Assembly: GCA_043801745.1 (NCBI GenBank)
Contig: JAZDLR010000022.1
Location: forward strand, 65,960 to 129,959
DNA from: Candidatus Komeilibacteria bacterium
GTDB lineage: Bacteria > Patescibacteriota > Patescibacteriia > UBA1558 > 2-01-FULL-52-15
DNA length: 64,000 bases
Direction of reading: 5' to 3'
A program made the position numbers and the translations under genes. This document shows, piece by piece, positions 3,295-62,082 of the stretch (its first letter is position 1; every line of letters begins with the position of its first letter). The notes below the pieces were generated by a model. It did no database searches and had not been told where the DNA came from. It saw nothing but the letters and a program-made list of their open reading frames with translations.

Positions 3295-3305
3295 AGATAA
3301 ATAAA

Positions 3306-4064
3306 TTATAAGTTTTCTAACGCCCGCTTACTGACTTCATCATTGGGGTCAAGACGCAACGCCTGCTCATAATACTTGCGGGCTTCGGCAATATTACCGA
3401 CAGATCTATAATAATCGCCGGCTATACGCTGCAACTGCGGACTATCCGGTATCACAGTGGTCGCCTGAGTTAATAAAGCCTGAACTTTGGCCGGGTCTTT
3501 AAAACCATCATGATATAAATCATACATCTCCGTAAAATAGACGTAGAGATTGCCCTTCTCCGCCGTGGCCATAGCCTTCTGATAAAACTCTTCGGCCTTG
3601 GGATAATTCTTCAAATAATACGTGTACAAGTGGCCCAAATTACCATTTAAAATATAACTATTGGGTTCCAACTTATAAGTATAGAGATAAATTTGCTCGG
3701 CTCCGGTATAATCTCCGGCCATCTGTTTGATCAGACCCATTTTTAGTAGCGCGTCAAAAGCTATAAGATTATTCTGATTGGCTAAGAAAAACTTGGTGCT
3801 GGTAGCAAAAGCCGAAGCGTATTTATCTTGAACATCCTGAGGTAAACTTTTATCTTTAATCTCAAAAGTCGTCATCTGTGTTACTTGTTGCCCAGCCTGA
3901 TTTTTCTGTGCTGCAGGTAAGTAAAACCAAAAATAGTAACCAACTCCTAAAGCTATAATCAAAGCTAAAAGAGCACCAAACCAAATCCATTTATATTGAC
4001 TAATCCAAGTAATAATTAGCTTCATAATAGGCATATTGTATATGCTGACGGCATTTTCTGTCAA
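3306..4064 (-). CDS. TPR repeat protein with N-terminal membrane anchor
   Basis: 252 aa; TM helix WIWFGALLALIIALGVGYYFWFYL; TPR-like repeats (AEEFYQKAMATAEKGNLYVY, AEARKYYEQALRLDPNDEVSKRALENL). Immediately upstream of the ligase-like gene, probably same operon. Confidence 0.6.
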   Translation of the reverse strand: MTENAVSIYNMPIMKLIITWISQYKWIWFGALLALIIALGVGYYFWFYLPAAQKNQAGQQVTQMTTFEIKDKSLPQDVQDKYASAFATSTKFFLANQNNLIAFDALLKMGLIKQMAGDYTGAEQIYLYTYKLEPNSYILNGNLGHLYTYYLKNYPKAEEFYQKAMATAEKGNLYVYFTEMYDLYHDGFKDPAKVQALLTQATTVIPDSPQLQRIAGDYYRSVGNIAEARKYYEQALRLDPNDEVSKRALENL

Positions 4065-42241: not shown

Positions 42242-42242
42242 A

Positions 42243-43817
42243 CTAATGAATAATTAAGCTTTTACCAGTCATATCATGAGGCTGCTCTAACTTCAATAGA
42301 TCTAAAACTGTCGGGGCAATATCGCCCAAAATACCGTTAGCCCGCAACTTCAGACGGCTTCCGGCTTTCACAATAATAAACGGCACCGGATTGGTAGAAT
42401 GCTCGGTTTCCGGCTCGCCGGTCTTGGGATCAATCACGCCTTCGGCGTTGCCATGGTCAGCAGTAATAAGACAAATGCCTTTTTTATCCAGCACTGCTTT
42501 GGTAATTTTACCCAGGGCATCATCAGTATATTCGCAAGCTTTGACCGTGGCCCAGAATTTACCTGTATGAGCAATCATATCAGCATTGGCGATATTCATG
42601 ACAATAAAATCAAACTCTCTATTGCGAATGGCGGAAAGCACCCGCGCAGATGTTTGGGCTAGACTCATCTGCGGTTGATCTTCGTAATGCTTCACATCCG
42701 GCGACATTATCATCTCCCTGACCTCGCCATTAACCGGATGATCATAACCGCCATTAAAAAAATAGGTCACATGGGCAAACTTCTCGCTTTCCGCCACAAC
42801 CAATTGGCGGTAGCCTGATAAGGCCATGGGCAAAGTATCCACGATCTCGCGGCCAGGATAAGCCGTCATCAGCTTGGGCATATCTGGTCCAAAATCCGTC
42901 ATAGCCACTAAAAATAAATTCCTAGGTTTATTCTTGGGCTTAAAAGAACCCTTATTGGCCCGCAGAAAATCGTCCTGGGCAAAGGGTTTACATAATTGAC
43001 GGGCGCGGTCAGAACGCAAATTAAAAAATACTACGGCGTCATTATTTTTTATCAGCCCTTTTGGTTGATTATCGGCAGCGACAATAACCGTGGGTTTAAT
43101 AAATTCATCACTCTCACCGCGGGCATAGGCGTGTAGCACTGCGTCTTCGGGTGTCGGCTCTTTCAATCCTCGGCCCAAGACCATAGTGTTATAGGCCATT
43201 TCTGTCCGCGACCATTCTTTCTTACGGTCCATGCCATAGAATCGACCCATGACCGTGGCCACAGTGGCGTAATTACTAAAGATGCCGTGAAAAGATTTAA
43301 ATAATTTTTGCGCGTAATAGGGCGGCGCGTCACGGCCGTCAGTAAATAAATGCAAGAAAATATTACGTACTTTCTTGCGGTTAAATAAAGTAATTAAAGA
43401 AATTAAATGATCCGGATCCGAATGAGCGCTCTGATTACCGGTAATCATACCGACTAAATGCACATCAGAATGATATTTCTGCGTCTGAGCCACTGCTCCC
43501 ATAAAGGCCGGGTTACGGAAAAAAGTGCCATTATTTATGCTCTTAGAAATCACCACCGCATCTTGCTCAACAATACGCCCGGCGCCGATATTCATGTGGC
43601 CAGCTTCAGAATTGCCTTCTTGCCCGGGCGGCAATCCGACATACTTAGAAGAAGCCCGCAAAGCCGTGTGTGAATATTTTTTTACCAGCTGATTATAATA
43701 AGGCAATTTTGCCGTAGTAATGGCATTACCTTTAATGGCCGGACCAATGCCCCAGCCATCCATGATGATCAAAACACACAACTGTTTATCCCTGCTGACC
43801 ATAAAGTTCTTTCTCAA
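42243..43817 (-). CDS. gpmI: 2,3-bisphosphoglycerate-independent phosphoglycerate mutase, divergent tandem paralog
   Basis: CVLIIMDGWGIGP and GNSEAGHMNIGAGR. Same family as the neighbour but clearly diverged. Confidence 0.85.
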   Translation of the reverse strand: MRKNFMVSRDKQLCVLIIMDGWGIGPAIKGNAITTAKLPYYNQLVKKYSHTALRASSKYVGLPPGQEGNSEAGHMNIGAGRIVEQDAVVISKSINNGTFFRNPAFMGAVAQTQKYHSDVHLVGMITGNQSAHSDPDHLISLITLFNRKKVRNIFLHLFTDGRDAPPYYAQKLFKSFHGIFSNYATVATVMGRFYGMDRKKEWSRTEMAYNTMVLGRGLKEPTPEDAVLHAYARGESDEFIKPTVIVAADNQPKGLIKNNDAVVFFNLRSDRARQLCKPFAQDDFLRANKGSFKPKNKPRNLFLVAMTDFGPDMPKLMTAYPGREIVDTLPMALSGYRQLVVAESEKFAHVTYFFNGGYDHPVNGEVREMIMSPDVKHYEDQPQMSLAQTSARVLSAIRNREFDFIVMNIANADMIAHTGKFWATVKACEYTDDALGKITKAVLDKKGICLITADHGNAEGVIDPKTGEPETEHSTNPVPFIIVKAGSRLKLRANGILGDIAPTVLDLLKLEQPHDMTGKSLIIH

Positions 43818-47659: not shown

Positions 47660-47890
47660 ACTGGAACAACAATATCTCCTTCTTCCGGCACCGGACATTC
47701 CTCGTGAGATGGATCACAAGGATCTCCTCCAGGAGGCGGTGTTTAGACTATAGTATGTTTCTTCACTCTCTGATTCGTATGATCGTAGACGTATTCAGTA
47801 TGGTCAAGTGAGCCATCCTGCTGGCCACGGGTTCGATTAATGATGGTACCGGGTCAATGGAAATTATTGGTAGCTCTAAAGGTGCGAGCT
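47660..47890 (-). pseudogene. degenerate, scrambled remnant of an Rhs C-terminal cassette (handle plus linker fragments)
   Basis: 47675-47840 aligns to the cassette handle (encodes ...DHTEYVYDHTNQRVKKHTIV*TPPPGGDPCDPSHEECP with in-frame stop and decayed 5' part). 47845-47890 matches the cassette-1 linker (compare 54270-54320). Order is reversed relative to intact cassettes. Confidence 0.5.
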
Positions 47891-48108
47891 TATATAATAT
47901 CAGCATTCTCTACTAAATCCTTCGGTAATTTTTTACTAGCACCAATAATCTCCAACCCAACTAAAATGCCGCAATCATCAAAATCTAAATTGATCATGCC
48001 ATCAATTTCTTTTGGATCACATGGATAAGTTTTTGATACTTTACCACCCGGATCCTGAAAATATATGTACGCCGCATCGACGCTCTTGTCATAACTTACT
48101 TTTATCAT
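47890..48108 (-). CDS. DUF2283 family small protein (possible immunity/antitoxin-like partner of cassette 3)
   Basis: 72 aa. MIKVSYDKSVDAAYIYFQDP...GMINLDFDDCGILVGLEI fits the DUF2283 pattern (KIxYDxEADALYIxL). Confidence 0.55.
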   Translation of the reverse strand: MIKVSYDKSVDAAYIYFQDPGGKVSKTYPCDPKEIDGMINLDFDDCGILVGLEIIGASKKLPKDLVENADII

Positions 48109-48111
48109 AAA

Positions 48112-49818
48112 TTATTTTGTTAAACTATTAATATATTTACTGGTTACATCGGTAATAACAGTTATAACGTTGCCAGTTGCTTTTTCTTGACCTATAAATA
48201 TTTTGGTCGTAGCATCATAATAACCAAGCTTTACAATGCCTTCGTGAATATACTCAAAGGGTTTAATGTTGTTTAACACATTAATTACTTTACTCTCATT
48301 ACCGATTCCAATCTTCTGAGCAATTCTAGCTACAGAATGGGTCGAAAAGTTATAATCACTCGACCTCAAATTCTGCGCCACCTGGTTCATCTTTTGACCA
48401 AGCGCCGAACCGTATTGTTGGGTATAATCGATTACATTTTTTGCATCTGCGGCTGCTGACCCACAAAATCCCAAACAACCAGTACCGGCACCTCCTAAGA
48501 ATTCAATACTCAGGTATGTTAATCCGGCAGCAGCTCCATAAGCCACTGCTCCACTCGCAACCCCAACCACTACACCAGTAGCTACCGGGTGATCCATGGC
48601 ATTCTTCCAAACACCACTAGTATCATACATCTGCTGTGCAGCTTGACCCAACTCAACCTGAAAGTCATTGAAAGATTGTCTGCCAGTAAATATTTCCTTC
48701 CACCAGTGACCATCAGGATCAACAATAATAACCGGATTATTGCGAGAGTAGGCGTAACTATTTAGAGCTTGGGGATCTGAAAGAAGTTGCTTTAGTTTAG
48801 ATCCCGTTTTCTCCTGAACTCTTTGGTCACTAGCAATTTGAAGCATGAAAGGGTCTATGCTCGCGAACCTTCCAATGGAATTGTCATAATACCTGGCTCC
48901 GAAGTACTGTAGATTAGTCTCATTATCCAACTCCTTCCCCGTAAACTTATAGTTATTGCCTATATCAGTAGTGACATTTGTGAAAGCTTCACTGCCATAA
49001 GGGTAATAATCACTTACTTCGGTTATTGTGCCGGAGCTGTCAGTTATCAAAGAACTAGAACCTAAATGATCTCCCAGAACATAGAAAATACCAATAGGTG
49101 ATCCAGAGAGATTATCCGTGGCCAGCTTTATATTACCAAGAAAGTAGTGATTCTTGGAAGAGCCATTAAACTGCGTCTCATAGTACTTATCTATGTAGTA
49201 AGTAGCTGCATCTTGTGCAGCAGGCATTGATTCAGGTTCAATGGGGGCTTGAATCCTATCGGGTGTAGATGTCGCAGTTTCTGGGGTACTGGTTGCTATT
49301 GGCTCAATAACTACAGGTAATGGTTCAATTATGGGATCAGTAATGACAGGATCGGTAGAAGTGGCAACAGAAGGAGCAAGGAGTAAGGAGTCAGCCGCCT
49401 TGTCGAGTACGACAAGTCGCGGCAAGGAAGTAAGGGAATTGTCCACGGTTTGAATGGTAACATCGGAGCTTAGAGAATCTACTGTCTCGTCCACCCCTAC
49501 TCCATTCTCCATACTATTTACTCCTAACTGATCATCAAGACTACCATCTACTGGAGTAAGCAACTTCGGCTCTGGCTTAGTAACAACCGGCTCTAACGGC
49601 ACTACAATACTCTGCTGTTCCGGAACCGGACATTCCTCGTGAGAAGGGTCACAAGGATCGCCTCCAGGAGGAGCTTCATAGATTATGGTGTGTTTCTTGA
49701 CTCTTTGATTCGTATGATCATAGACATATTCGGTGTGATCGGCTGATCCGTCCAGAGTACTTCCAGTCATGCGATCTCGCCAGTCGTAGTTTAGAGTATC
49801 GGAATTGATAAACCTCAC
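48112..49818 (-). CDS. orphan Rhs C-terminal cassette 3 (handle, linker, Rhs-core C-terminal ~170 aa, DPDG, toxin tip 3)
   Basis: Starts inside the conserved handle (MRFINSDTLNYDWRDRMTGSTLDGSADHTEYVYDHTNQRVKKHTIIYEAPPGGDPCDPSHEECPVPEQQ). Core end YFGARYYDNSIGRFASIDP...NPVIIVDPDGHW, followed by a ~200-aa tip unrelated to the other tips. Confidence 0.75.
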   Translation of the reverse strand: MRFINSDTLNYDWRDRMTGSTLDGSADHTEYVYDHTNQRVKKHTIIYEAPPGGDPCDPSHEECPVPEQQSIVVPLEPVVTKPEPKLLTPVDGSLDDQLGVNSMENGVGVDETVDSLSSDVTIQTVDNSLTSLPRLVVLDKAADSLLLAPSVATSTDPVITDPIIEPLPVVIEPIATSTPETATSTPDRIQAPIEPESMPAAQDAATYYIDKYYETQFNGSSKNHYFLGNIKLATDNLSGSPIGIFYVLGDHLGSSSLITDSSGTITEVSDYYPYGSEAFTNVTTDIGNNYKFTGKELDNETNLQYFGARYYDNSIGRFASIDPFMLQIASDQRVQEKTGSKLKQLLSDPQALNSYAYSRNNPVIIVDPDGHWWKEIFTGRQSFNDFQVELGQAAQQMYDTSGVWKNAMDHPVATGVVVGVASGAVAYGAAAGLTYLSIEFLGGAGTGCLGFCGSAAADAKNVIDYTQQYGSALGQKMNQVAQNLRSSDYNFSTHSVARIAQKIGIGNESKVINVLNNIKPFEYIHEGIVKLGYYDATTKIFIGQEKATGNVITVITDVTSKYINSLTK

Positions 49819-49889
49819 ATTACCGTTATTATCGTAGGATAAGGTGTCGGAACCGGCTGTGCGGGCTTGGTGGGGGTTATGTCAAAGAG

Positions 49890-50579
49890 CTAGTGTTTCC
49901 TTAACTTCACAAAGAACCAGATTGCTATACCTAGAATAACAAGATTAACGGTCAGTTGACCCGTTACAAATCCCAGAGAATAATCATTATTACTAGTCTG
50001 TATTTGATAAATCAGTTTCGTGAATTGCAAAATAGTGCTGGGCAAAATAGCTACAGCTACGACAATGCAAATGAATCGCCAAAATTTAGTTCCAAAGGAT
50101 TTTCTTCTATTTCTTAATCCCTTTTGTAAATTTGAGATCGCTATATCCTTTAAATCAAAAGTACTTGTACCTGATAGGAATCCCCTGAGATCAATCTTTT
50201 GAGAAAGGGCATCAATAAATCGATCTTTTGTTTCAAAATACTTATTTAGGTCTACGTCTCGACTAATTAAATCCTGTAGCTTCTTCCTTCTAACGCTAAA
50301 CTCATTTTCTCCTAAAGGAGAGCTAAGTAATAGAATATCCGCCAGTATACTTGAATCCCCCCTAAGAAACCTAACCGCCTCATCTCTACTCTTTGCGACT
50401 GCAAAAGTTTGATTATTATTTTCAATAAAATCTTCTTGGATACGAATCGTGACATCTCTAAATTCGTTTGGCCACCCAGACAATATTTGCCAGAAGGTTT
50501 TTTTATCAATATTCGGTTCTTTATCCAAAATATCAATAATTATCTTGAGACATTCCGCTTTTGCATTATCAAAGGTCAT
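49890..50579 (-). CDS. putative immunity protein for tip 2 (C-terminal membrane anchor)
   Basis: 229 aa. C-terminal 70 aa (FGTKFWRFICIVVAVAILPSTILQFTKLIYQIQTSNNDYSLGFVTGQLTVNLVILGIAIWFFVKLRKH) homologous to the C-terminus of 52384..52995. Position immediately downstream of cassette 2. Confidence 0.55.
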   Translation of the reverse strand: MTFDNAKAECLKIIIDILDKEPNIDKKTFWQILSGWPNEFRDVTIRIQEDFIENNNQTFAVAKSRDEAVRFLRGDSSILADILLLSSPLGENEFSVRRKKLQDLISRDVDLNKYFETKDRFIDALSQKIDLRGFLSGTSTFDLKDIAISNLQKGLRNRRKSFGTKFWRFICIVVAVAILPSTILQFTKLIYQIQTSNNDYSLGFVTGQLTVNLVILGIAIWFFVKLRKH

Positions 50580-50581
50580 AT

Positions 50582-52264
50582 CTATTTACCTTTAAGCTTA
50601 TTAAACAAATCACTTAATGTAAAATGATGGAGATTCACTGGTATATTTTTGCCAAGAATATTCATGCTAAAATCTGCATCGACATGGAATGTTTTGGCGC
50701 CACCATCAGTAAACGCATGGCGGTCAAGACTAATTACTCGCTGTTTAGCTAAATTGCCCGGCTTCTCAAGATCACGCAAGATCAAACCGCCACCGCCACC
50801 CTTATAGGGATCTGCCGCCAGCTGATACCTTTCTCCTGTAAACTTTAAACCTTGACTGTCAAGTTGGGTAGTAATCTTACTAGATTTCGATACTCCTTCA
50901 GCGATAAGGAAAGTGTCAAACGCAGCACCGCCTACCGCCTGTCCCTGGGTGTAGTCGTCAGCCGCAAGAAATTCTTTAGCTTGCATAGCGAGACCGGTGC
51001 GTATCTCTCCAATAGTCTGGTTCGGATTCTGAGCGATATCGTGCGATAATTGGCTACCCTGCTTATAACCTTCTGCCACTAAATTACCTATTGACTTTGC
51101 CGTATCAATAGGATGAGTAATGGCGACACCAGTCTGATATGCTCTAACTGCGGCTCCGACTAATAATCCCTTGCCAAAATCCACGTCTGTATTCCCATCC
51201 GGATCCACCAATACTATCGGGTTTCCTCTACTATAAAGATAGCTATGTAATCTCTGCGGATCAGACAGAACTTTGGTCAGTTTATTTACATTGAGATTGT
51301 AAGGATCAATACTGGTAAAATAACCAGCGGTTTGATTATAATACCTGGCGCCAAAATAGGAAAGGTTGGTTTCGGTATCTAGTTCTTTACCGGTATACTT
51401 ATGATTATCACCAATGTTGGTCGTGGTATTGCTATAGGATATCGTTCCATACGGATAATAATCAGTTGTATCAATAATCTGACCACTGGTGTCAGTAGTT
51501 ATAGAGCTCGATCCCAAATGATCCGAGAGATCATAATAAATACCTGTATTAGAGCCATTTAGGACATCTGTGGCAAGTTTAATATTACCCAGGAAGTAGA
51601 AATTACGAGCAGCTCCGCTATATTCTTTTTCATAATACTTATCAATATAATAGGTGGCACTATCTTCGCTGGCAGGAATAGAGTTTAATTCAATAGGAAT
51701 CTGTAGTCTATCCGGAGTTGAGGTGGCTTCAGTATCATCTAATGGAGGTAATACTATATCGTCAGTACTAGTAGCAATAATCTCGGGCGTTGAGGTGGCT
51801 AGCGGATCGGGCAAGATAATAATATCTGGGGTAGTAGTAGCTAACGGCTCAACTAACGGTGTTACTGGGTCAATAGTAATTAGTGGAACTTCAATACGCT
51901 GCTCGTCAGAAGGCAAATCTGATGCCTCGTCCCCATCTGATACTGCTTCGGTTTTAATACTTTGCGCCACAACCTCTCCAACCCCTAACTCCTTACTTCC
52001 AACTTCTAACTCCTGATTTATCCCATCATCAAGACTACCGTCGATTGGAATCGGTAGCTTGGGATCAGGCGTTTCAACAATCGGCTCAACCGGTACAACA
52101 ATACTCTGCTGCTCTGGCACCGGACATTCTTCGTGAGACGGATCACAAGGGTCACCTCCCGGAGGCGGTGTATAGACAATCGTGTGTTTCTTAACTCTCT
52201 GATTCGTATGATCATAGACGTATTCGGTATGATCGGCCGAGCCGTCCAGAGTACTGCCAGTCAT
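50582..52264 (-). CDS. orphan Rhs C-terminal cassette 2
   Basis: Begins MTGSTLDGSADHTEYVYDHTNQRVKKHTIVYTPPPGGDPCDPSHEECPVPEQQ. Core end NPIVLVDPDGNT. Tip (HPIDTAKSIGNLVAEGYKQG...NPNQTIGEIRTGL...) is homologous to tip 1. Confidence 0.75.
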   Translation of the reverse strand: MTGSTLDGSADHTEYVYDHTNQRVKKHTIVYTPPPGGDPCDPSHEECPVPEQQSIVVPVEPIVETPDPKLPIPIDGSLDDGINQELEVGSKELGVGEVVAQSIKTEAVSDGDEASDLPSDEQRIEVPLITIDPVTPLVEPLATTTPDIIILPDPLATSTPEIIATSTDDIVLPPLDDTEATSTPDRLQIPIELNSIPASEDSATYYIDKYYEKEYSGAARNFYFLGNIKLATDVLNGSNTGIYYDLSDHLGSSSITTDTSGQIIDTTDYYPYGTISYSNTTTNIGDNHKYTGKELDTETNLSYFGARYYNQTAGYFTSIDPYNLNVNKLTKVLSDPQRLHSYLYSRGNPIVLVDPDGNTDVDFGKGLLVGAAVRAYQTGVAITHPIDTAKSIGNLVAEGYKQGSQLSHDIAQNPNQTIGEIRTGLAMQAKEFLAADDYTQGQAVGGAAFDTFLIAEGVSKSSKITTQLDSQGLKFTGERYQLAADPYKGGGGGLILRDLEKPGNLAKQRVISLDRHAFTDGGAKTFHVDADFSMNILGKNIPVNLHHFTLSDLFNKLKGK

Positions 52265-52383
52265 CAGGTCGCGCCAGTCGTAATTTAAGGTATCGGAATT
52301 GATAAACCGAACGTTACCGTTATTATCATAAGATAAGGTGTCAGAACCGGCTGTGCGGGCTTGGTGGGGGTTATGTCAAAAAA

Positions 52384-52995
52384 CTAGTGTTTCTTTAATT
52401 TCACAAAGAACCAGATTGCTAATCCAATAATAACCAGATTAACGGAAAGTTGACCCGTTGCAAATCCGAGGGAATAATCATTATCGCTTTTCTGAATTAA
52501 ATATGTCAGTTTAAATAATTGCAAAATTGTACTAGGCAATATAGCTACAACTACAACAACACAAATAAATCGCCAAAATTTAATTCCAAAAGATTTCCCT
52601 TTCGATTTTAACAAATGGTCCGTGTTATTTGCTAATTCAGGATCCTCAAGAGCTTGTTTAAGTAACGTTTTGAACTCATCGTATGAGTCAAATAATTGAT
52701 CAAAAAAATTAGATCCATTGATTATCCTGATGATTTTTTTTCTAAGTTTAAGATATTGACTCCTGTCAAGCTGGTCGGATTCATCCAATATAAAATATTC
52801 AGCTAAAATTTCCGGGGTTTTTCCCAATAGATTGATATCCTGAAGCTCGACTTGATTGATCAATTCGGTCAAATCTGCTTTTACTGAATTATCAATATCC
52901 AATCTAAATAAATCCTCAAATAAATTTGCAGAATTAATATCTCTTGATTTAATTACAGAAAGAAGCCATTCTTTAAATTTTTTCACATCACTCAT
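52384..52995 (-). CDS. putative immunity protein for tip 1 (C-terminal membrane anchor)
   Basis: 203 aa; C-terminal FGIKFWRFICVVVVVAILPSTILQLFKLTYLIQKSDNDYSLGFATGQLSVNLVIIGLAIWFFVKLKKH. Confidence 0.55.
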   Translation of the reverse strand: MSDVKKFKEWLLSVIKSRDINSANLFEDLFRLDIDNSVKADLTELINQVELQDINLLGKTPEILAEYFILDESDQLDRSQYLKLRKKIIRIINGSNFFDQLFDSYDEFKTLLKQALEDPELANNTDHLLKSKGKSFGIKFWRFICVVVVVAILPSTILQLFKLTYLIQKSDNDYSLGFATGQLSVNLVIIGLAIWFFVKLKKH

Positions 52996-52996
52996 A

Positions 52997-54739
52997 TTAT
53001 TTTTTTAACAATTTATCAATCACTCCCCAAGGAAAGTGGTTAACAATTTTGTTGCCATTTAATAATAGGTCAAGATGAGGCAAAGGCAGCTGAATACTTC
53101 CAACGGGAACATTATGGACATCAGCTCCTAAAACTCTAGTCTTATAATAATTACCTTTTACCTCAAAATCTCTGAGCGATACCCCTGCTCCCTTTGCCCC
53201 TTTAAATAAATCTCCACTCACTCCAAATCTTTCACCCTTTAAACCGACGGAGGCTCCTTGCTTATAAGCCTGAATGTCTCCCGATTTTTCGATTCCTTTT
53301 GCCATTAGGGCTGCATTACCGACAACATTTCCAACAGCCAACCCTTTCTCATAATCCGATTTATCCATGAATTCGTTATAATTCATGTTTAAGCCCGCCC
53401 TTATCTCTCCGAATGTCTGGCTGGGATTCGCAGCTATGTCACGTCCAAGAGAAACAGCACCCTCAACTCCGGCTTTAAGAGTATTACCGACGGATTTTGC
53501 TGTATTAATTGGATGCACTATTGATTCAACCGTTCCAACTCCAAAATTAACTACAGCCTGTCCGACACCTATTGAATATCCACCTAGGTATTCCACAGGG
53601 GTATTTCCATCCGGATCCACCAATACTACTGGATTCCCCCTGCTATAAAGATAACTATGTAATCTCTGGGGATCAGACAGAACCTTGGTCAGTTTATCCA
53701 CATTGAGATTGTAAGAATCAATACTGGTAAAATAACCAGCGGTTTGATTATAATACCTGGCGCCGAAATAGGAAAGGTTAGTCTCACCATCGAGCTCTTT
53801 ACCGGTATATTTATGATTATCACCAATGTTGGTCGTGGTATTGCTATAGGATATCGTCCCATACGGATAATAATCAGTTGTACCAGTAATCTGGCCACTA
53901 GTGTCAGTGGTTAGAGAACTCGATCCTAGGTGATCCGAGAGATCATAATAAATACCTGTATTAGAGCCATTTAGTACGTCCGTGGCTAGTTTAATATTCC
54001 CCAAGAAGTAAAAGTTTCGAGAAGCTCCGTTATATTCCTTTTCATAGTACTTATCTATGTAGTAAGTAGCCGTATCCTGCACGGCTGGCATTGAATTCAG
54101 CTCAATAGGAGTTTGAATTCTGTCTGTCGTAGATGTGGCTTCCGTATCATCTAATGGAGGTAATACTATATCATCAGTACTGGTAGCTATATCCTCTATT
54201 GGGGATTCTATTATTTCTGGGGTAGTCGTAGTAATGGTATCTGGAGTGGAACTAGCCACAGGCTCAATCAATGATGGTACTGGGTCAATGAAAATTGTAG
54301 GTAGCTCTAAAGGCGCAGGATCCTCAATAGTACCTACCTCATCTCCGGACTCATCTACAGCATCCGCCACCTGAACAGTCTGTGCTTCAACACTTTCTCC
54401 TTGCTCCATACTTCCTACTCCTGACTGATCATCAAGACTACCATCTACCGGAGTAAGTAACTTCGGTTCTGGCTTAGTAACAACCGGCTCTAACGGCACT
54501 ATAATAGTCTGCTGTTCAGGTACTGGACACTCTTCATGAGATGGGTCACAAGGGTCACCTCCCGGAGGCGGTGTATAGACAATCGTGTGTTTCTTAACTC
54601 TCTGATTCGTATGATCATAGACATATTCTGTGTGATCGGCCGAGCCGTCCAGAGTACTGCCAGTCATCCGGTCGCGCCAGTCGTAATTTAGAGTATCGGA
54701 ATTGATAAACCTTACGTTACCGTTATTATCATATGACAA
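52997..54739 (-). CDS. orphan Rhs C-terminal cassette 1
   Basis: Begins MSYDNNGNVRFINSDTLNYDWRDRMTGSTLDGSADHTEYVYDHTNQRVKKHTIVYTPPPGGDPCDPSHEECPVPEQQ. Core end NPVVLVDPDGNT. Tip HPINTAKSVGNTLKAGVEGAVSLGRDIAANPSQTFGEIRAGL... Confidence 0.75.
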   Translation of the reverse strand: MSYDNNGNVRFINSDTLNYDWRDRMTGSTLDGSADHTEYVYDHTNQRVKKHTIVYTPPPGGDPCDPSHEECPVPEQQTIIVPLEPVVTKPEPKLLTPVDGSLDDQSGVGSMEQGESVEAQTVQVADAVDESGDEVGTIEDPAPLELPTIFIDPVPSLIEPVASSTPDTITTTTPEIIESPIEDIATSTDDIVLPPLDDTEATSTTDRIQTPIELNSMPAVQDTATYYIDKYYEKEYNGASRNFYFLGNIKLATDVLNGSNTGIYYDLSDHLGSSSLTTDTSGQITGTTDYYPYGTISYSNTTTNIGDNHKYTGKELDGETNLSYFGARYYNQTAGYFTSIDSYNLNVDKLTKVLSDPQRLHSYLYSRGNPVVLVDPDGNTPVEYLGGYSIGVGQAVVNFGVGTVESIVHPINTAKSVGNTLKAGVEGAVSLGRDIAANPSQTFGEIRAGLNMNYNEFMDKSDYEKGLAVGNVVGNAALMAKGIEKSGDIQAYKQGASVGLKGERFGVSGDLFKGAKGAGVSLRDFEVKGNYYKTRVLGADVHNVPVGSIQLPLPHLDLLLNGNKIVNHFPWGVIDKLLKK

Positions 54740-54784
54740 GGTGTCAGAACCGGCTGTGCGGGCTTGGTGGGGGTTATGTCAAAG

Positions 54785-54884
54785 AACTAGCGTTTCCTTA
54801 ACTTCACAAAGAACCAAATTGCTAATCCAATGATCACAACATTGACTGTAAATTCGCCAATTATTAATCCCGGTACTGAATCGG
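54785..54884 (-). pseudogene. remnant of the TM-anchored immunity gene C-terminus
   Basis: Minus strand encodes ...GLIIGEFTVNVVIIGLAIWFFVKLRK*, matching the last ~25 aa of the 203/229-aa immunity proteins, followed by the handle sequence. No upstream ORF body. Confidence 0.4.
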
Positions 54885-55184
54885 TCAATTTTGATAGACC
54901 AAAACTCCATAATCTCTATCAGATTTCATACTATCAATAATCTGGTTGACAACAAAACTATCATTTTCTTCAAACTCAACCTCTGATTCAACATGGGTCA
55001 GAACCTCAGTTTGAGTAACATATAAATCCTCCAGTTCTTCTTCGCTCAGAGTCTCAGTTACAATAACATTATATGTAAGTGTTTTATCCTTATAGGTAAA
55101 ATAAATTTTTAGAATCTTCAAACTTAATCTAGAAGATGTAAAGACATATTCAATGGCGCCTTTCAGTCTAGTGATTGGGTTCAT
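54885..55184 (-). CDS. putative cognate immunity protein of the main Rhs toxin tip
   Basis: 99 aa, acidic (EEELEDLYVTQTEVLTHVESEVEFEEND); starts 5 nt after the Rhs stop. Assignment is by position only. Confidence 0.45.
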   Translation of the reverse strand: MNPITRLKGAIEYVFTSSRLSLKILKIYFTYKDKTLTYNVIVTETLSEEELEDLYVTQTEVLTHVESEVEFEENDSFVVNQIIDSMKSDRDYGVLVYQN

Positions 55185-55189
55185 ATTAA

Positions 55190-58100
55190 TTACTTAAGAA
55201 GTTTAAATGGCTTAGATGGCACAAGGTGCGTCCCTGTTTTACTGAAATGAATAGTACCTCTGGTTGTATCGAATAATTTTCCCGTTTTATCGTCGATGTA
55301 CTTACCAATAGTTTCACCGAAATCAATCGTTTCTTTCCATAGCTTTCCCTGATTAAATATTTTTTGACCCTTACCGGCGAATTCATTAATTAGTTTTTGT
55401 GGGTTAGTGTGGGTCACAATACTTTTGCCAACCTCATATGATTCCCCAAGTGCATGCTTAGCTTGCTTTGTAGCATCTATCGTCAGATTCAGTCCCTTAG
55501 TAGCCCCCTTAGCTAGGTCGTCAGCGTGTTTAGCTACAAACCCCGCCCCCTCTTTACTTCCTTTCCCATATCCACCTCCAGGTAGTGCTAATCCTAGGGC
55601 TACGCCACCAACAGACAACGCCTTGTCTGAATTTGATGAATTGGGATTGGCTAATGTGTTAGCAGTATCGTAATAATCATACATTGTTAATCCAACCTCG
55701 ACAACTCCCCAGGCAATTAGAATTAATGGGATAATTTTTCCATCGGGATCTACGTATCGGATAGGATTATTGACCGAATAAGCATAAGAGTTGAGATTCT
55801 GGGGATTCTGGAGATGAATCGCTAACGGTCTACCTGCGCTTTCCTTAAATTGCGCCTCATTACCCAACTCAAATAAGATCGTATCAATACTATTAAATCG
55901 TCCTATTTCCTGATTATAGTAACGTGCTCCAAAGTAAGATAGGTTAGTCTCACCATCGAGCTCTTTACCGGTATATTTATGATTATCACCAATGTTGATC
56001 GTGGTATTACTATAGGATATGGTTCCGTAGGGATAATAATCAGTTGTATCAATAATCTGGCCACTAGTGTCAGTAGTTAAAGAGCTTGATCCTAAATGAT
56101 CCGAGAGATCATAATAAATCCCAGTATTAGGGTCATTTAGGACATCTGTGGCTAATTTAATATTGCCCAGAAAGTAGAAATTACGAGCAGCTCCGCTATA
56201 TTCTTTTTCATAGTACTTATCTATATAGTAGGTAGCACTATCCTCGCTAGCCGGAATAGAGTTTAATTCAATAGGAATCTGGAGTCTATCTGAAGTAGAG
56301 GTAGCTTCGGTATCATCAATAGGTGGCAATACAATATCATCAGTACTGGTAGCGATAATCTCGGGCGTTGAGGTGGCCAGGGGCTCGGGTAAGATAATAA
56401 TATCTGGGGTCGTAGTAGCTAACGGCTCAAATTCGGGTAAGACAGGATCGGTAGTAACTAGTAGCACATCAAGCCGCTGATCATCAACAGTAATATTTGC
56501 GTCTGATTCAGCTGAACCGTCTTCAACCTTTATACTTTGCGCAGCAACCTCCCCACCCAAGGTATCTATATTAGGATCTATTAACTCTACATCAGGCACT
56601 TTAGGATTATTCACTTCCTCCTCTGATGTTGGTTCTAAAGGTACTACGATACTCTGTTGTTCGGGTAAGGGACATTCTTCGTGAGACGGATCACAGGGGT
56701 CGCCTCCTGGAGGAGCTTCGTAGATAATAGTGTGTTTCTTGACTCTTTGATTCGTGTGATCATAGACATATTCCGTGTGATCAGCTGATCCGTCCAGAGT
56801 ACTGCCAGTCATACGGTCGCGCCAGTCGTAGTTTAAAGTATCGGAATTGATAAACCTCACATTACCGTTATTATCATAGGATAAGGTTTTATCTCCGGCT
56901 GTGCGGGCTTGGTGGGGGTTGTTTAAAGTATAAGTGTAGTCCCCGACTCCGGTCTGCGATAAGATATTGCCAATGCTGTCATAAGTGAAACTACGGGTGT
57001 AATTAGTATTACTGGCGGAATTAGTAACAGTTACTGAAAGCAAACGATTCAAATCGTCATAACTATAACTGACATTTTTCGCCAACTGCGTGGCCGAAGT
57101 ATCGATCAAAGTTAAAATATTTCCATTCGGATCATAGATGTAAGCAATATCCTGTAAAACTCGGGAGCCCTTCACACTATGAATACGGGTCAGACGATAA
57201 TTCTGGCTCGCGTCATAAGTATAATCAGTAACAATTCCATTGCCGCGCTCCAAGTGCGCCACCTGACCCATCGGAGAATAAGTAACATTCTGCGCTAAAA
57301 CAGTGGTCTGACTATTTTTAACTTTATTCACCTGACTAACCTGTCCAGCCGAATTGTAAAGATAATCAACGCGCTCGCCTTCAGGATAAGTAATTGATGT
57401 CACGTTGCCGTTCCAGTCGTAGGTATAAGTTAAGACATAACTATTGCCGTCAATCATTCGGGTAACTGTCAGCGGCTTGCCCTGCGGATCATAAGTATAG
57501 ACCGTAGTTAAACCGTCACTGCCAACCACGCGGGTCAATCGACCCAGCTGTCCACTACCCTGATCATAAGTCAGCGTATACTCTGTTCCTGTCTGAGCAG
57601 TGAAGTTCTCGGTTAATAGCCGGTTCAGAGCGTCATAAGTATAATTCGTGGTCTGATACTTCGGATCTCGTTTGTTTAGAACGTTGCCGTTCTTATCATA
57701 AGTATAGGTCCAGTGCATCGGATTACTGACGCTGGCTTTATGCACCATATCCTGTTGCGTCAGATTATCCAAAGCGTCATAAGTAAAGTTACGGATGTTT
57801 CCTTGGCTGTCAGTAATTTTCCTCAGCTTATTGGTTAAAGTATATTCATAATTAGTCGTGTAGATCGAACTGCTGTTAAACTCCTCCACTTTCACCAAAT
57901 TGCCAAACGCATCGTTGGTCAATTTCTTGATCTTGCCCCGCGGATCAGTAATCGTAGTGGTCAAACCATCATAAGCATAACTAGTAGTGCCAGTTAAGAT
58001 GACTTCGGATAATTTACGGTTTAGACTGTCATAAGTGGTGACTTTCGCGTTCGTGAAGCTGGGACTGGAATTATAGGCATTTGAAGATGTAAACACTGGC

Positions 58101-61100
58101 AAGGATTCGCGGTTGACGCGGTCCTGACTGTCATAAGCGGTATAGGAAGTAACATATTGCCCGCTGACATCAGAACGCGAACTTTGGATCACCCGGCCTA
58201 AACCGTCATAGTATTCGCGGGAAGTAACATAATGACCCGTGCTAAAATAATCTTTAACTTCTTTATAGTTCGGAAAATTGGCGTCCTGATAAATTATCTC
58301 CTGTTTTGTAATCAAATTAGCCGCGTTAGCCGGATCAGACACCTCTTTCTTGATCAACCGGCTAAAAGCATCATAAGTATTTTTCTCCTGATAACCATTA
58401 GGATCACGGGAATATAATAATTGTCCGCTTACTGGGTCGTATTCAGTGACAGTCACGCGGCCCAAAGCATCAGTGGTCGTGGACACGAATAAATGCAGGG
58501 GTTCATAAGCTAAAGTTACCGCGGTATTTTCTTTCGGATCTTTCTTAGTCAACGGCAAGCCAAAACTGTCGTAAGTGGTTTCAATGTCAACGGTATTGAC
58601 TTTCAAATCTTCTTTCGTGACATTAGCGCGGTCGATCTGTCCTAAAGCTAACTGGTCGTAATACAGATCCTGATCTTTGGTCTCACCAATACCGGAAACT
58701 ACTTTTGTTTTAGGTGCACCAACAATATACTTTTGACTGTTAGTAGCATAAGCGTAAGTAGTAGTTTTCTCATCGCCAGTCAGCTGATCAATAATATCAC
58801 CACTACCGGTATTAGCAGTAACCTGACCAAGATTTTGTTCTTCCGTGACATTACCCAGAGCGTCATATTCGTAAGTTGTGGCCTGTGATTTGGCTGCTGT
58901 TCCGAAAATAGTTTGCGTGCCGCGCTCAACGAAAGAAAAAATTCTGTTGTCTGGCAAATTCACCGCATTAACCTTACTAACATTTTGCTGTAATAATTGT
59001 CCGCTAGCATTACGAATCTCCTGTCTGAACGGCTGACCTATTTTGGCATAGCTATCCTGATATTCTCCCATAGCCGACCCGTCCAATCCTCCACCCTGAT
59101 GATAATAAGTCGTTATCAGGCTGTCGCTTTCAGCTTTGGTAACCTTACCAAAACCCACAAACCTATTCTGTTTAATATTACTACCGACATAGTAACTACC
59201 GTCCTCATAGCTATAATTTACTGTTTGCTGGTTACCCAATCCATCGTTATAGTCAATTTCCGACACAACCGGCACATTAACGATTGACCGCGGATTCAAA
59301 AGTTGCTGATTCTCATCTTTCAATTGAGCCGAGGCAGCATAGTCAGCGCTAACAATGGTCTGATCCAGCCGTTTAATACTTCGCAGCTTTTGCCAATCAG
59401 CCGGTTGATTAAGAGTACGAACCGAATTTTCCTGCTCTTCATAAACATACTCAGTTTTATAGGAGGTATTATAGCTTGGCATCAGGCTACCGGTAGCATC
59501 AAATAAACGGAATCTGGAATTATAATCTAAACGTTTATTATCTCCCGTGTATTCACCAAAAATAAACGGTATTTGGTAACTGGTATCAATATTCCATTGC
59601 CCATTTCCGCTGTTAATATAAACATTTTTTATGTCTGAATTATTTTGCCAATAATCATGGTAGGACTCAACAAAGTCCGCCAAACCATCAGCGTTTATAT
59701 CCAAAATTTTGAATCTAAAACCATAATCATTCAATACTTGTGTAGTGGTATAATAGGAAAAATCCAGCGGAATGATCCAGGAAGTATCCAAATCCCAACC
59801 ACTCTTACCATTATTAATATAAACAGCCTTCTGATGGGTATTAATCGCCTGATCATACTGTGAATACATTAAATCTGGTAAACCATCACCATTAACATCG
59901 GCCACTCTATATTCGCTCTGACGGTCACTAATTTCATTACTGGAAGCGTGATAAGTAGCAAAATATACAGGTACGGTCCAATTAGTATCAAGGTTCCAAC
60001 CATTAATCCCGTTATTCAAATAGACATGCTGAATATGAGTAGCGGCATTATCATCACGGTATGATTCCACAAAATCAGCCAAGCCATCACCATTAATATC
60101 GGTAAAAATAAACTCCGGTGTATAAACCATCTGTTCACTACCACTAGAAGCATAATTGGCAAAATTTAAAGGTACAATCCAGCCAGTTGCCAATGTCCAG
60201 CCGTTAATACCATTATTCAAATAAACCTGTTGTACTGGAACATTTTCCACGGAATATGACACGACAAAATCTTCCCGCGAATCACCATTAACGTCACCAA
60301 CAACAAATCTGCTTTGATAATTCCAAATCGGCCAGCTACAAGTATCATAACGAAAGGCAAAATCAAATGGTAACTGCCAATCAGAAGTTGTTGCCCAGCC
60401 ATTAACGCCATTATTTATGTATGTTTTCTGATAAATATTTTCCGGACAATCTTGATTACTATGCAACAAGTCGGTCAATGAATCGCCATTAACATCCAAG
60501 GGCAAAAAGGCAAAAGTACCGCGTTGTGAAACATTTGAAACGTCTATAGACTCAAACCTAAAAGGCAGCTGATAATTACCATCAGTGATCCACTCTTTAG
60601 ACGAAGTACCATAATCAAAATCCGTAGCCGGCAGATATTCCCAGCCACTACCATTATTGCCCGCTTCTTTGACACGGCTAATCATTGTCTGGCCTGCTTC
60701 ACCAGCTATAGTCTCTAAATCATATTTCTTCTTAGCCACACCGTTTACCAAAACTTGAATAGTATTAATGGCATATTTGGTAGTCACAGAAAAACCCGCC
60801 TCCTGACTATTGGATATATCCGGTCGTGTACTAATGGGACCAGAATAAATCGGATCAAATATAATTCTATACGGCCCGTCAACGGTGCCATTACCAGTAT
60901 AATATATCGCTTTCGGATAAATAGCGCCGGAATCTTTCCAATACTCGTAGCGCAAAAAATTATCATTGGTGTCACGGATTTCGGCTAAATACCAGCGGTA
61001 AATTTTGCCGGCATCAGCCTGGTCGTTTTGACGGCTGGCACTATCGGAACCAAAAGTATATACAGTACCGGTCTTATCTGTAACTTTCCAAGTCTTGTCA

Positions 61101-61798
61101 GTAAGCCACTCAATTTTATAAAACTGACTTTCCACTTCAACTCCATAAGTACCGTAGCCATCTTGGTCAACAGATAGCGGCAGCAAATTGCCGCCACCCG
61201 GTAAACTTAAAACAAAATCAAAATTGGTATAACGTTTTTCCGTTCCTTGCCGACCCGAACGCTCAATAAAAGGGCTATCTAAGTCCCAACCCAAACCATA
61301 AAACGAATCCTTATTATTACGCTGACTATTATAGGTCAAGGCCAAAGAAGGCTGTAAGCCATTACGGCCCTTAGGAATGTCTAGAGAGTAGTTATAACTA
61401 AAAGCGCCAGTGGATTCAACAACTTGCGCTTGATCATTTTTCCCGATTGCGAATTTATTTGGGTTCTTGGCGGCAAAAAAATCATTACCAGCATTTGGCA
61501 CTTCACTGCCGTCACCACTCGCCTGCTCACTGGTTTCCGGAACAATCGGCGGTAAAGAGCTTTCAATAGTCTGCTTCTGGTCCTGACTAATGTTACTGTC
61601 AGACGCGTCAGTCGCTGTGTCAGCTAACAAAAAAGCACTCTTATTTTCTGGAGTGCCGGCATTAGTGACATTTACTTTACTGGCTGCCAAAACTGGCATC
61701 AATGGCATGCCAACCGTAGTGACGATTAAAAATATAATAACTATTCTGCCAAGCCCGAGATTAGCTCTCAACATATATTTATCATGATTTATAAACAA
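55190..61798 (-). CDS. Rhs/YD-repeat polymorphic toxin (2202 aa) with N-terminal FG-GAP-like repeats and C-terminal variable toxin domain
   Basis: Signal peptide (likely true start Met at 61772-61774: MLRANLGLGRIVIIFLIVTTVGMPLMPVLAA; ORF-track start is TTG). FG-GAP-like DINGDGLADFV, DVNGDGLPDL, DINADGLADFV. Many YD repeats (YTYDALGNV, YDAFSRL, YYDGLGRV, YTAYDSQDRV, YAYDGLTTTITDPRGK). Rhs core ...YFGARYYNQEIGRFNSIDT...NPIRYVDPDGK, then a ~190-aa tip. Confidence 0.9.
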   Translation of the reverse strand: MFINHDKYMLRANLGLGRIVIIFLIVTTVGMPLMPVLAASKVNVTNAGTPENKSAFLLADTATDASDSNISQDQKQTIESSLPPIVPETSEQASGDGSEVPNAGNDFFAAKNPNKFAIGKNDQAQVVESTGAFSYNYSLDIPKGRNGLQPSLALTYNSQRNNKDSFYGLGWDLDSPFIERSGRQGTEKRYTNFDFVLSLPGGGNLLPLSVDQDGYGTYGVEVESQFYKIEWLTDKTWKVTDKTGTVYTFGSDSASRQNDQADAGKIYRWYLAEIRDTNDNFLRYEYWKDSGAIYPKAIYYTGNGTVDGPYRIIFDPIYSGPISTRPDISNSQEAGFSVTTKYAINTIQVLVNGVAKKKYDLETIAGEAGQTMISRVKEAGNNGSGWEYLPATDFDYGTSSKEWITDGNYQLPFRFESIDVSNVSQRGTFAFLPLDVNGDSLTDLLHSNQDCPENIYQKTYINNGVNGWATTSDWQLPFDFAFRYDTCSWPIWNYQSRFVVGDVNGDSREDFVVSYSVENVPVQQVYLNNGINGWTLATGWIVPLNFANYASSGSEQMVYTPEFIFTDINGDGLADFVESYRDDNAATHIQHVYLNNGINGWNLDTNWTVPVYFATYHASSNEISDRQSEYRVADVNGDGLPDLMYSQYDQAINTHQKAVYINNGKSGWDLDTSWIIPLDFSYYTTTQVLNDYGFRFKILDINADGLADFVESYHDYWQNNSDIKNVYINSGNGQWNIDTSYQIPFIFGEYTGDNKRLDYNSRFRLFDATGSLMPSYNTSYKTEYVYEEQENSVRTLNQPADWQKLRSIKRLDQTIVSADYAASAQLKDENQQLLNPRSIVNVPVVSEIDYNDGLGNQQTVNYSYEDGSYYVGSNIKQNRFVGFGKVTKAESDSLITTYYHQGGGLDGSAMGEYQDSYAKIGQPFRQEIRNASGQLLQQNVSKVNAVNLPDNRIFSFVERGTQTIFGTAAKSQATTYEYDALGNVTEEQNLGQVTANTGSGDIIDQLTGDEKTTTYAYATNSQKYIVGAPKTKVVSGIGETKDQDLYYDQLALGQIDRANVTKEDLKVNTVDIETTYDSFGLPLTKKDPKENTAVTLAYEPLHLFVSTTTDALGRVTVTEYDPVSGQLLYSRDPNGYQEKNTYDAFSRLIKKEVSDPANAANLITKQEIIYQDANFPNYKEVKDYFSTGHYVTSREYYDGLGRVIQSSRSDVSGQYVTSYTAYDSQDRVNRESLPVFTSSNAYNSSPSFTNAKVTTYDSLNRKLSEVILTGTTSYAYDGLTTTITDPRGKIKKLTNDAFGNLVKVEEFNSSSIYTTNYEYTLTNKLRKITDSQGNIRNFTYDALDNLTQQDMVHKASVSNPMHWTYTYDKNGNVLNKRDPKYQTTNYTYDALNRLLTENFTAQTGTEYTLTYDQGSGQLGRLTRVVGSDGLTTVYTYDPQGKPLTVTRMIDGNSYVLTYTYDWNGNVTSITYPEGERVDYLYNSAGQVSQVNKVKNSQTTVLAQNVTYSPMGQVAHLERGNGIVTDYTYDASQNYRLTRIHSVKGSRVLQDIAYIYDPNGNILTLIDTSATQLAKNVSYSYDDLNRLLSVTVTNSASNTNYTRSFTYDSIGNILSQTGVGDYTYTLNNPHQARTAGDKTLSYDNNGNVRFINSDTLNYDWRDRMTGSTLDGSADHTEYVYDHTNQRVKKHTIIYEAPPGGDPCDPSHEECPLPEQQSIVVPLEPTSEEEVNNPKVPDVELIDPNIDTLGGEVAAQSIKVEDGSAESDANITVDDQRLDVLLVTTDPVLPEFEPLATTTPDIIILPEPLATSTPEIIATSTDDIVLPPIDDTEATSTSDRLQIPIELNSIPASEDSATYYIDKYYEKEYSGAARNFYFLGNIKLATDVLNDPNTGIYYDLSDHLGSSSLTTDTSGQIIDTTDYYPYGTISYSNTTINIGDNHKYTGKELDGETNLSYFGARYYNQEIGRFNSIDTILFELGNEAQFKESAGRPLAIHLQNPQNLNSYAYSVNNPIRYVDPDGKIIPLILIAWGVVEVGLTMYDYYDTANTLANPNSSNSDKALSVGGVALGLALPGGGYGKGSKEGAGFVAKHADDLAKGATKGLNLTIDATKQAKHALGESYEVGKSIVTHTNPQKLINEFAGKGQKIFNQGKLWKETIDFGETIGKYIDDKTGKLFDTTRGTIHFSKTGTHLVPSKPFKLLK

Positions 61799-62082
61799 AA
61801 TTAGTGTCGGCTATGAAAACCGACGGCTGTTTTATTTTGGCTAACTTTATGTTTGTTTGACCGTTGAAGGTAAAACTTAGGGTGAAAAGCGACGGCTGTT
61901 ATTTCAATGGACGGCCTTTATTAACTTGATTTTAGCAAACTGTAGCGCCATGTCAAACCTATTTGAAGTCCTTTGCTTCTAACAGGGTCAATCCCGTCAA
62001 ATGACCGCAACGGTGCGAATGATATGGTCAATAATAGACAATTGAAGTTGTTATTTTTTAAATAGACATATATCCTATATAT

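Follow-up and report, generated by a model that had tools for sequence, protein, structure and literature searches.

A probable array of orphan Rhs C-terminal modules behind a YD-repeat toxin gene in a Candidatus Komeilibacteria genome

Genes and features of the locus

We analyzed a stretch of DNA of 64,000 nucleotides (nt; hereafter the window) on contig JAZDLR010000022.1 of a Candidatus Komeilibacteria metagenome-assembled genome (MAG), which belongs to the Patescibacteria/Parcubacteria group of the candidate phyla radiation (CPR) and represents a bacterium of groundwater type. The region studied is probably the 3' end of a Rhs/YD-repeat polymorphic-toxin locus that takes up ~14 kb of this genome, with an array of orphan rhs C-terminal (rhs-CT)/immunity modules that is explained by C-terminal displacement. 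On the minus strand, from high to low coordinates, the order is main rhs, imm0, orph3, imm3, orph2, imm2, orph1, a DUF2283 gene, frag0, ORF160 and pgk; the three orphan products are named by NCBI in this genome. Three orphan modules are intact but probably silent, and one more is left as a decayed scar. The order within a module is a 297-nt segment encoding the last YD repeats (the handle), a variable proline- and threonine-rich (P/T-rich) linker, a complete Rhs-associated core ending in DPDG, a predicted toxin tip and a putative immunity gene. The features are as follows (aa, amino acids; TM, transmembrane).

55190..61798, minus strand: main rhs gene, 2202 aa from TTG, with Pfam and NCBIfam matches
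56631..56927, minus strand: handle in the main gene, ungapped homology to three orphans (84-88% nt)
56237..56630, minus strand: hypervariable P/T/E-rich linker of the main gene, between handle and Rhs-associated core, from the protein alignment
55739..56236, minus strand: core end of the main gene, TIGR03696 match
55910-56236, minus strand: C1 of the main gene, from ATYYIDKYY to RYYNQ
55739-55909, minus strand: C2 of the main gene, from there to DPDG
55193..55738, minus strand: Ntox50 toxin tip of the main gene, Pfam PF15542
54885..55184, minus strand: imm0, putative immunity gene (99 aa) for the Ntox50 tip, assigned by position only
54787..54882, minus strand: remnant of a TM-type immunity gene, last 31 codons and TAG, aligns to the C-termini of imm2 and imm3
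54486..54782, minus strand: orph3 handle, in-frame TGA at 54779-54781
52997..54778, minus strand: orph3, 593 open codons after the TGA, 202-aa tip at 53000-53605
52384..52995, minus strand: imm3, putative immunity protein of 203 aa
52083..52379, minus strand: orph2 handle, TGA at 52376-52378
50582..52375, minus strand: orph2, 597 open codons, tip at 50585-51193
49890..50579, minus strand: imm2, TM-type putative immunity protein of 229 aa
49589..49885, minus strand: orph1 handle, TGA at 49882-49884
48112..49881, minus strand: orph1, 589 open codons, tip at 48115-48708
47890..48108, minus strand: DUF2283 gene, 72 aa (Pfam PF10049, 1.2e-11)
47660..47885, minus strand: frag0 scar, a linker piece at 47821-47885 followed by handle codons 43-95 at 47660-47818

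The main protein consists of SpvB, FG-GAP repeats, RHS/YD repeats, the Rhs-associated core and the Ntox50 tip, in this order. The Pfam matches are RHS_repeat PF05593 (6e-33, six stretches), SpvB (8.5e-16), FG-GAP and Ntox50 (6e-22), and the NCBIfam matches are TIGR03696 (aa 1921-2020, 5e-17) and TIGR01643 (1.9e-19); among PDB sequences the tip is similar to YxiD-CTD (2.5e-12) and the MafB2 toxin (2.6e-9). By these predicted domains the gene has the marks of a Rhs/YD-repeat polymorphic toxin, namely shell repeats, a TIGR03696 core with the DPxG motif and a variable C-terminal toxin domain. Translation probably starts at the ATG giving MLRANLGLGRIVIIFLIV... rather than at the TTG, and the N-terminus, as read from the translation, is likely to resemble a signal peptide. 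The imm0 gene begins 5 nt past the rhs stop, has a GC content of 0.32 and has no family match. The strongest promoter-like site of the region (61929-61956, minus strand; TTGACA, 16 nt, TG-TAAAAT, 11 of 12 matches) is located ~130 nt upstream of the main rhs start, and none of the orphans has a site of this quality ahead of it; apart from this site, the scan for promoters and terminators was uninformative, with counts close to those in shuffled sequence.

Each orphan contains the complete TIGR03696 Rhs-associated core (1e-14 to 1e-19), ending in DPDG and followed by a tip of ~200 aa; this motif is at aa 2017 in the main protein and at aa 375, 354 and 367 in the orphans. The orphans have an in-frame TGA at the 5' edge, no signal peptide and a conserved internal ATG, in a genome without clear Shine-Dalgarno sequences by which that ATG could be judged; NCBI has annotated orph3 from an internal ATG (MFH0874194.1).

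The handle repeat

The original prediction, which was made from the sequence alone, had placed near-identical recombination handles of ~250 bp before every orphan cassette and within the main gene. All four collinear copies were recovered both by self-BLAST and by a repeat finder, 10-60 nt from the predicted positions: the segment 56927-56631 of the main gene aligns without gaps with 54782-54486, 52379-52083 and 49885-49589 (BLAST E-values 1e-82 to 1e-101). The copies are somewhat longer than predicted (297 nt each) and encode the last YD-repeat strands (NNPHQARTAG...VVPLEP).

They are, however, far from near-identical. The nucleotide identity is 84-88% between the main gene and the orphans and 86-92% between orphans, and 29-34 of the 36-47 main-orphan differences are at third codon positions. 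The rate of synonymous substitutions (dS) is 0.39-0.91 (0.67-0.88 for main-orphan pairs), the rate of non-synonymous ones (dN) is 0.02-0.05, and the dN/dS ratio is 0.03-0.06. With dS so high, recent duplication of the copies or gene conversion between them is ruled out, and the displacement events are left undated; recent recombination between these copies, against which the prediction itself had named high synonymous divergence as an argument, has to be given up.

Other elements of the prediction fared better. Identity drops sharply at the linker boundary, from 85-92% nt in the handle to 50-71%, with indels, in the linker, and each orphan handle contains the predicted in-frame stop, a TGA at 54781-54779, 52378-52376 and 49884-49882, reading *HNPHQARTAGSDTLSYDNNGNV. 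The handle does abut the 3' end of the preceding small gene, starting 5 nt past its TAG, but the neighbor of orph3 is the 31-codon remnant of a TM-type immunity gene rather than an intact gene. The repeat is real but does not end with the handle: homology resumes past the linker, and each orphan retains ~370 codons of the core. The copies are tied to cassettes in the three orphans, but a fifth, partial copy (47660-47818) has an internal stop and no cassette behind it.

The linkers (56237-56630, 54070-54485, 51659-52082 and 49207-49588, minus strand) interrupt the Rhs core where the last YD repeats give way to the Rhs-associated core domain; they are of low complexity and contain a recurrent ATSTP[DE] motif.

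Runs of up to 77 nt are exactly the same in different repeats. The longest exact main-orphan run within the handle is 26 nt for orph2 and orph3 and 39 nt for orph1, and the longest exact matches of the main gene to orph3 and orph2, 57 and 41 nt, are in C1. Hence, the handle is neither the sole nor the best recombination substrate. A 26-nt block invariant in the four handles was considered as a recombination site and rejected, since its orthologue in a related locus (L001, see below) varies synonymously and its conservation is roughly within chance. No recombinase genes, tandem repeats or site-like inverted repeats were found near the array, and site-specific recombination is therefore not favored.

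Selection on the orphan frames

In each orphan, 36 handle codons separate the TGA from the first ATG. These codons are untranslatable in their present position, and pairs of orphans differ in them by 6-12 synonymous and 0-1 non-synonymous changes (dN/dS 0-0.04). The orphan frames are open over 589-597 codons, where ~4% of possible substitutions would make a stop; at a neutral divergence of 1% all three frames would remain free of stops with a chance of 0.11, and at 2% with a chance of 0.012. The low dN/dS ratios together with the open frames indicate that nearly all of the divergence has accrued while these sequences were translated parts of full-length genes, and by inference it arose in different lineages. 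The orphans would thus have spent a very short time as unselected DNA, or else would still be under selection. The divergence between handle copies is a measure of the distance between donor and recipient, not of the age of insertion.

The same 36 codons bear on the possibility that the orphans are genes in their own right, read from the conserved internal ATG (MTGSTLDG...) and encoding either intracellular toxin-antitoxin-like modules, of the kind reported in Salmonella, or separately exported short toxins. The frames of 552-560 codons from this ATG are indeed intact, internal expression has been reported for Salmonella rhs orphans, and a stand-alone relative of 409 aa with a signal-peptide-like N-terminus exists in another CPR locus (L007, see below). 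Yet the codons upstream of the ATG are under equally strong purifying selection, the same methionine is internal in the main gene and in L001 and hence is not specific to starts, the sequence preceding it is rich in GC whereas real starts in the window have A/T-rich leaders, and the orphans have no signal peptide. We consider this account unlikely; it is compatible with C-terminal displacement.

Mosaic cores and the shared junction

The core and the handle of orph1 differ in their relationships. In C1, the main gene, orph2 and orph3 are 87-88% identical at the nucleotide level, and each is only ~64% identical to orph1, the core end of which is synonymously saturated; in its handle, orph1 has the local type, with 86-88% identity to the other copies. 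The main handle is nearest to orph1, whereas the main C1 is nearest to orph2 and orph3, and the homology of the main gene to orph2 and orph3 stops at 55883. As judged by these alignments, the mosaicism supports past crossovers in or near the handle.

All three orphans have a common junction, in which the 3' end of an immunity gene, TAG, 5 nt and TGA CAT are followed by the handle. Upstream of the handle the orphans stay homologous to each other and not to the main gene; the homology of imm3 and imm2 runs through the stop into the handle (572 nt at 83.6%). Since the junction is shared, the 5' boundary of the orphans was made once and inherited, rather than produced by three independent truncations, and it has travelled with the modules. 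The handle is the most upstream core fragment kept by the modules.

One shared junction would also be expected if a single unit from handle to immunity gene had been tandemly duplicated in place by unequal crossing-over and had then diverged, without any foreign modules. In line with this, the orph3-imm3 and orph2-imm2 units are homologous throughout (handle 92%, C1 88%, C2 90%, final 228 nt of the immunity genes 81%, tips 39% at the amino acid level), and for this pair duplication in place may still have occurred. Silent copies, however, should approach a dN/dS of one and lose their frames, which is at odds with ratios of 0.03-0.06 at dS 0.39-0.91 and with frames that are all open; the core end of orph1 is synonymously saturated relative to the others while its handle is not; and the tips of the main gene, orph1 and the orph3/orph2 pair are unrelated, each having relatives in other genomes. 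For the array as a whole we regard such an origin as decidedly unlikely.

The most recent event appears to have been a replacement. The remnant ahead of orph3 (DSVPGLIIGEFTVNVVIIGLAIWFFVKLRKR*) begins 2 nt past the imm0 stop (59% amino acid identity by TBLASTN), and a segment of ~1 kb containing C2, the Ntox50 tip and imm0 (~55883-54885) seems to have taken the place of an older tip and of most of the TM-type immunity gene belonging to it. The left edge of this segment falls within the core, past RYYNQ, the right edge shows no homology, and the replacing module is now within the same flanking frame as the other modules. The general idea of tip displacement by homologous recombination and the orphan array thus stand, and what falls is recent recombination, separate truncations and the handle as the edge of the newest event, which is in the core at ~55883.

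At the other end of the array, the parts of frag0 stand in permuted order compared with a normal unit: handle codons 43-95, which contain an internal TAA, come after a linker piece of 65 nt. It looks like the decayed scar of an older module, as if a deletion had joined one unit's linker to the middle of the next unit's handle.

Orphan tips and immunity genes

The orph1 tip belongs to a family distinct from that of the orph2 and orph3 tips. Small low-GC genes are located 1-5 nt behind each tip. In imm3, a variable N-terminal domain is followed by a conserved C-terminal segment, apparently transmembrane as judged from its hydrophobic sequence only. The pairings of a tip of the orph3 type with a TM-type immunity gene and of a tip of the orph1 type with a DUF2283 gene recur in other genomes, and the DUF2283 gene of the window is likely to be the immunity or antitoxin partner of the orph1 tip.

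Searches with PADLOC, Pfam (relaxed threshold) and PDB sequences gave no credible match for the orphan tips and immunity proteins, DUF2283 excepted. A DUF4258-like nature of the orph1 tip, suspected from its DUF2283 partner, had no Pfam support, and an AlphaFold2 model of the orph3 tip was discarded (predicted local distance difference test score, pLDDT, 34).

Related loci

Genome and metagenome collections were scanned with the handle peptide, which gave one informative relative (L001), the other four matches being distant; relatives of the orph3 tip were found by an exhaustive profile search. Exact-sequence look-ups of pgk, orph3 (P0001) and imm3 returned no contigs on record.

L001 is syntenic with the window and ~75% identical at the nucleotide level. 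It contains rhs, a putative immunity gene of 122 aa, a 91-aa open reading frame (ORF), a homolog of ORF160, pgk, SIMPL and enolase, with one handle, one C1 and no orphan. The contig (CAZIOU010000001.1) is titled an uncultured Gammaproteobacteria MAG; its synteny with the window spans rhs, pgk, SIMPL, enolase and beyond, and the taxonomic label is probably wrong. In locus L006 the flanking genes are 89% identical to those of L001 at the nucleotide level, but the end of the rhs gene differs and is followed by an 86-aa gene and then by an orphan. The 5' boundary of this orphan is in the linker, and over the linker end and C1 it is 88% identical in nucleotides to the expressed end of L001; the segment duplicated inside L006 is 172 nt long at 77% identity. 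By this comparison L006 is a direct example of displacement in the clade, with another 5' boundary and a diverged overlap. At one and the same site, the number of orphans is therefore zero in L001, at least one in L006 and three in the window. Scaffold gaps of 100 N interrupt the rhs gene in both relatives (L006 9798-9897, L001 6501-6600); the one in L006 is in the linker and splits the gene calls without a frameshift.

Members of the orph3/orph2 tip family form the C-terminus of three full-length SpvB/FG-GAP/RHS proteins (P0122, P0132 and P0135, 2006-2409 aa), and P0139 matches the profile partly. P0122, encoded in locus L008, aligns with the main protein over 1733 aa at 49% identity, and its C-terminus is of the orph3/orph2 type (E-value 2e-48); it is followed by a homolog of the TM-type immunity genes and then by an EndoU orphan starting at approximately handle codon 46-50. 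The handle boundary of frag0 (codon ~43) is similar to that of this orphan. Despite 49% identity of the main Rhs proteins, the DUF2283 gene of L008 (11889-12110) is 80.6% identical to window 47890-48115 at the nucleotide and 79% at the amino acid level; located behind two small genes rather than a tip, it may be an orphan immunity gene. Linker length varies among these loci, from ~35 aa in L008 to ~160 aa in the window and ~200 aa in L001.

Homologs of the orph1 tip directly followed by a DUF2283 gene were found in three CPR contigs (L009, L010 and L011). L010, from Hainich groundwater, contains a main rhs gene and at least four core-retaining fragments with variable 5' boundaries; its main gene and first orphan (1384-1931 and 2818-3365) are 100% identical over 548 nt, which would indicate that the displacement is very recent or that the assembly contains a duplication. 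In L012 (26-6088), from a MAG of the Parcubacteria group, a homolog of the orph1 tip and a 101-aa gene are located beside a serine resolvase and an IS3-type transposase, just upstream of an ORF160-like gene, pgk, enolase and two cofactor-independent phosphoglycerate mutase genes, a tandem pair as in the window. Upstream of pgk, this clade may have a hotspot. In L007 (10001-11230), the N-terminus of the stand-alone 409-aa protein is signal-peptide-like and is followed by a P/T linker, the Rhs core end and Ntox44; there is no full-length rhs nearby, and cysS is upstream. The unit of linker, core and tip may thus work without a shell in some CPR bacteria.

These loci bear on a technical explanation, namely that the metagenome assembler strung strain alleles of one rhs 3' end in tandem. 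The sequence does come from a MAG, and the repeats share the long exact runs given above. Nevertheless, the units have coherent junctions and one immunity gene apiece, stacking of alleles would not be expected to leave the remnant and the frag0 scar, the copies are 8-16% different, which is enough for them to assemble apart, and comparable arrays are present in the independent assemblies L006, L008 and L010. An artefact of this kind is thus highly improbable.

Other genes of the window

In the glycolytic cluster downstream of the array, 40655-43817 (minus strand) encodes the two tandem phosphoglycerate mutase paralogs (528 and 524 aa). Four window ORFs encoding 568-1247 aa (6018-7949, 8184-11927, 20474-22180 and 30894-32990) have no Pfam match at E <= 1e-5.

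Comparison with known systems

The array belongs to a known kind, while its host lineage and its SpvB/FG-GAP-type carrier with a likely signal peptide are unusual. In enterobacterial rhs loci, as here, a full-length gene is followed by tandem fragments with a core, a tip delimited by DPxG and an immunity gene, without export signals; orphan tips are found on full-length genes elsewhere, and core homology permits in-frame recombination. There are also differences: the carrier here is an SpvB/FG-GAP protein, likely with a signal peptide, in a Patescibacteria genome; the orphans keep ~370 core codons with a hypervariable P/T-rich linker within; and their 5' boundary is uniform, while fragments of variable length are usual in Enterobacteria. 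C-terminal displacement in enterobacterial rhs loci is reportedly also credited to Poole et al. 2011. The main protein does not have the form of a Rhs effector delivered through a type VI secretion system (T6SS), as its N-terminus consists of a signal-peptide-like segment and SpvB; no match to PAAR, VgrG, Hcp or a T6SS context was found among the window ORFs scanned, which were part of the ORFs of the window.

WapA of the Gram-positive bacteria Bacillus subtilis and Streptococcus suis is a Sec-exported YD-repeat toxin. It shares with the main protein the YD/RHS-repeat carrier with a signal peptide (a likely one in the main protein), the polymorphic C-terminal toxin, the immunity gene behind it and a producing cell that lacks an outer membrane, but has cell-wall-binding repeats where the main protein has SpvB and FG-GAP, and we know of no long orphan arrays with retained core for WapA. 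The TcB/TcC components of Tc toxins resemble the main protein in the SpvB N-terminus, the FG-GAP beta-propeller, the RHS shell and the core that cleaves off a hypervariable C-terminal toxin (Pfam). TcdB_toxin_midN is carried by relatives P0132 and L010 and has no match in the main protein, and no TcA-like match was found among the window ORFs scanned. Unlike the Tc toxins, the protein here is a single fused polypeptide, and the immunity genes imply a bacterial target.

Finally, mafB of Neisseria, the orphan arrays of cdiA-CT and pilE/pilS likewise combine an expressed gene with silent 3' cassettes behind it, and conserved sequence on the flanks of these cassettes permits recombination; the main tip is homologous to a solved MafB2 toxin. 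The carrier proteins differ from those of mafB, contact-dependent inhibition (CDI) systems and pilE/pilS, and high-frequency programmed switching is not evidenced here. The analogy to mafB and antigenic variation was discussed by Jackson et al. (PMC2935791).

Proposed mechanism

In the displacement model, recombination between core fragments excises circles composed of a core fragment, a tip and an immunity gene, which reintegrate in the main core so that older tips are pushed downstream (Jackson 2009, PMC2935791). The core fragments in this model are of variable length, and very high core identity is asked for (PMC2935791). An orphan tip can be activated when the main gene and the orphan recombine in frame (Koskiniemi 2014, PMC3967940); in Salmonella Typhimurium LT2, where this has been proven experimentally, the main gene and the orphan are 95% identical over 522 bp, compared with 84-88% over 297 nt here (PMC3967940). 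The latter values are below the core identity of the Jackson model, which weakens the case for recent or efficient recombination in this genome, not the classification of the locus as an orphan array.

We infer that the modules are of horizontal origin and can recombine at present, that the tips are toxic and that the downstream genes protect against them. In such a scheme, the junction would have arisen once by an illegitimate event, and homologous recombination within the handle or core would then have brought in or swapped modules, with diverged relatives supplying the DNA; donors of this kind explain why the copies differ mostly at synonymous sites. In the last event C2, Ntox50 and imm0 would have overwritten the older tip and most of its immunity gene. 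Orphan immunity genes may protect against the toxins of neighbors, and the orphan tips may be kept in reserve. If the main gene and an orphan crossed over in frame, either in the handle or in C1, then 2145, 4548 or 7042 nt would be lost and the delivery shell would acquire a new tip.

A stronger version would be an actively cycling exchange of cassettes, in which modules shuttle between expressed and silent positions and between cells by two-sided homologous recombination, as in pilE/pilS. This reading is prompted by the uniform junction and the strong purifying selection on handle codons that are untranslatable in situ; it is tentative and, in our view, rather improbable.

Several points weigh against displacement by recombination at this locus. 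Recombination in this genome is deduced from comparison of sequences; with handle identities of 84-88% and exact runs of 26-39 nt, activation of an orphan may be rare here; purifying selection on codons untranslated in situ could reflect a very recent arrival and not a cycling reserve; for the three orphan pairs, activity as toxin and as immunity protein is assigned from position and homologs; and, the source being a MAG, misassembly is conceivable, though highly improbable. With these points taken into account, C-terminal displacement is still the probable explanation of the array.

Implications

Patescibacteria have tiny genomes and live attached to other cells. To our knowledge, orphan toxin arrays are well understood in Enterobacteria and hardly described in Patescibacteria. 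The locus leaves the accepted displacement model unchanged and adds two unusual details, the uniform module junction and handle copies that are heavily diverged at synonymous sites yet under selection. It also provides a caution for reading sequences alone, as repeats that are alike by eye may be near synonymous saturation. If cassettes do cycle, this would be a cycling cassette system in a CPR episymbiont with a small genome, the targets of which may be the host or rival epibionts. Together with its relatives, the locus forms a natural series beside pgk, with zero, at least one and three orphans, in which the gain, replacement and decay of modules can be traced.

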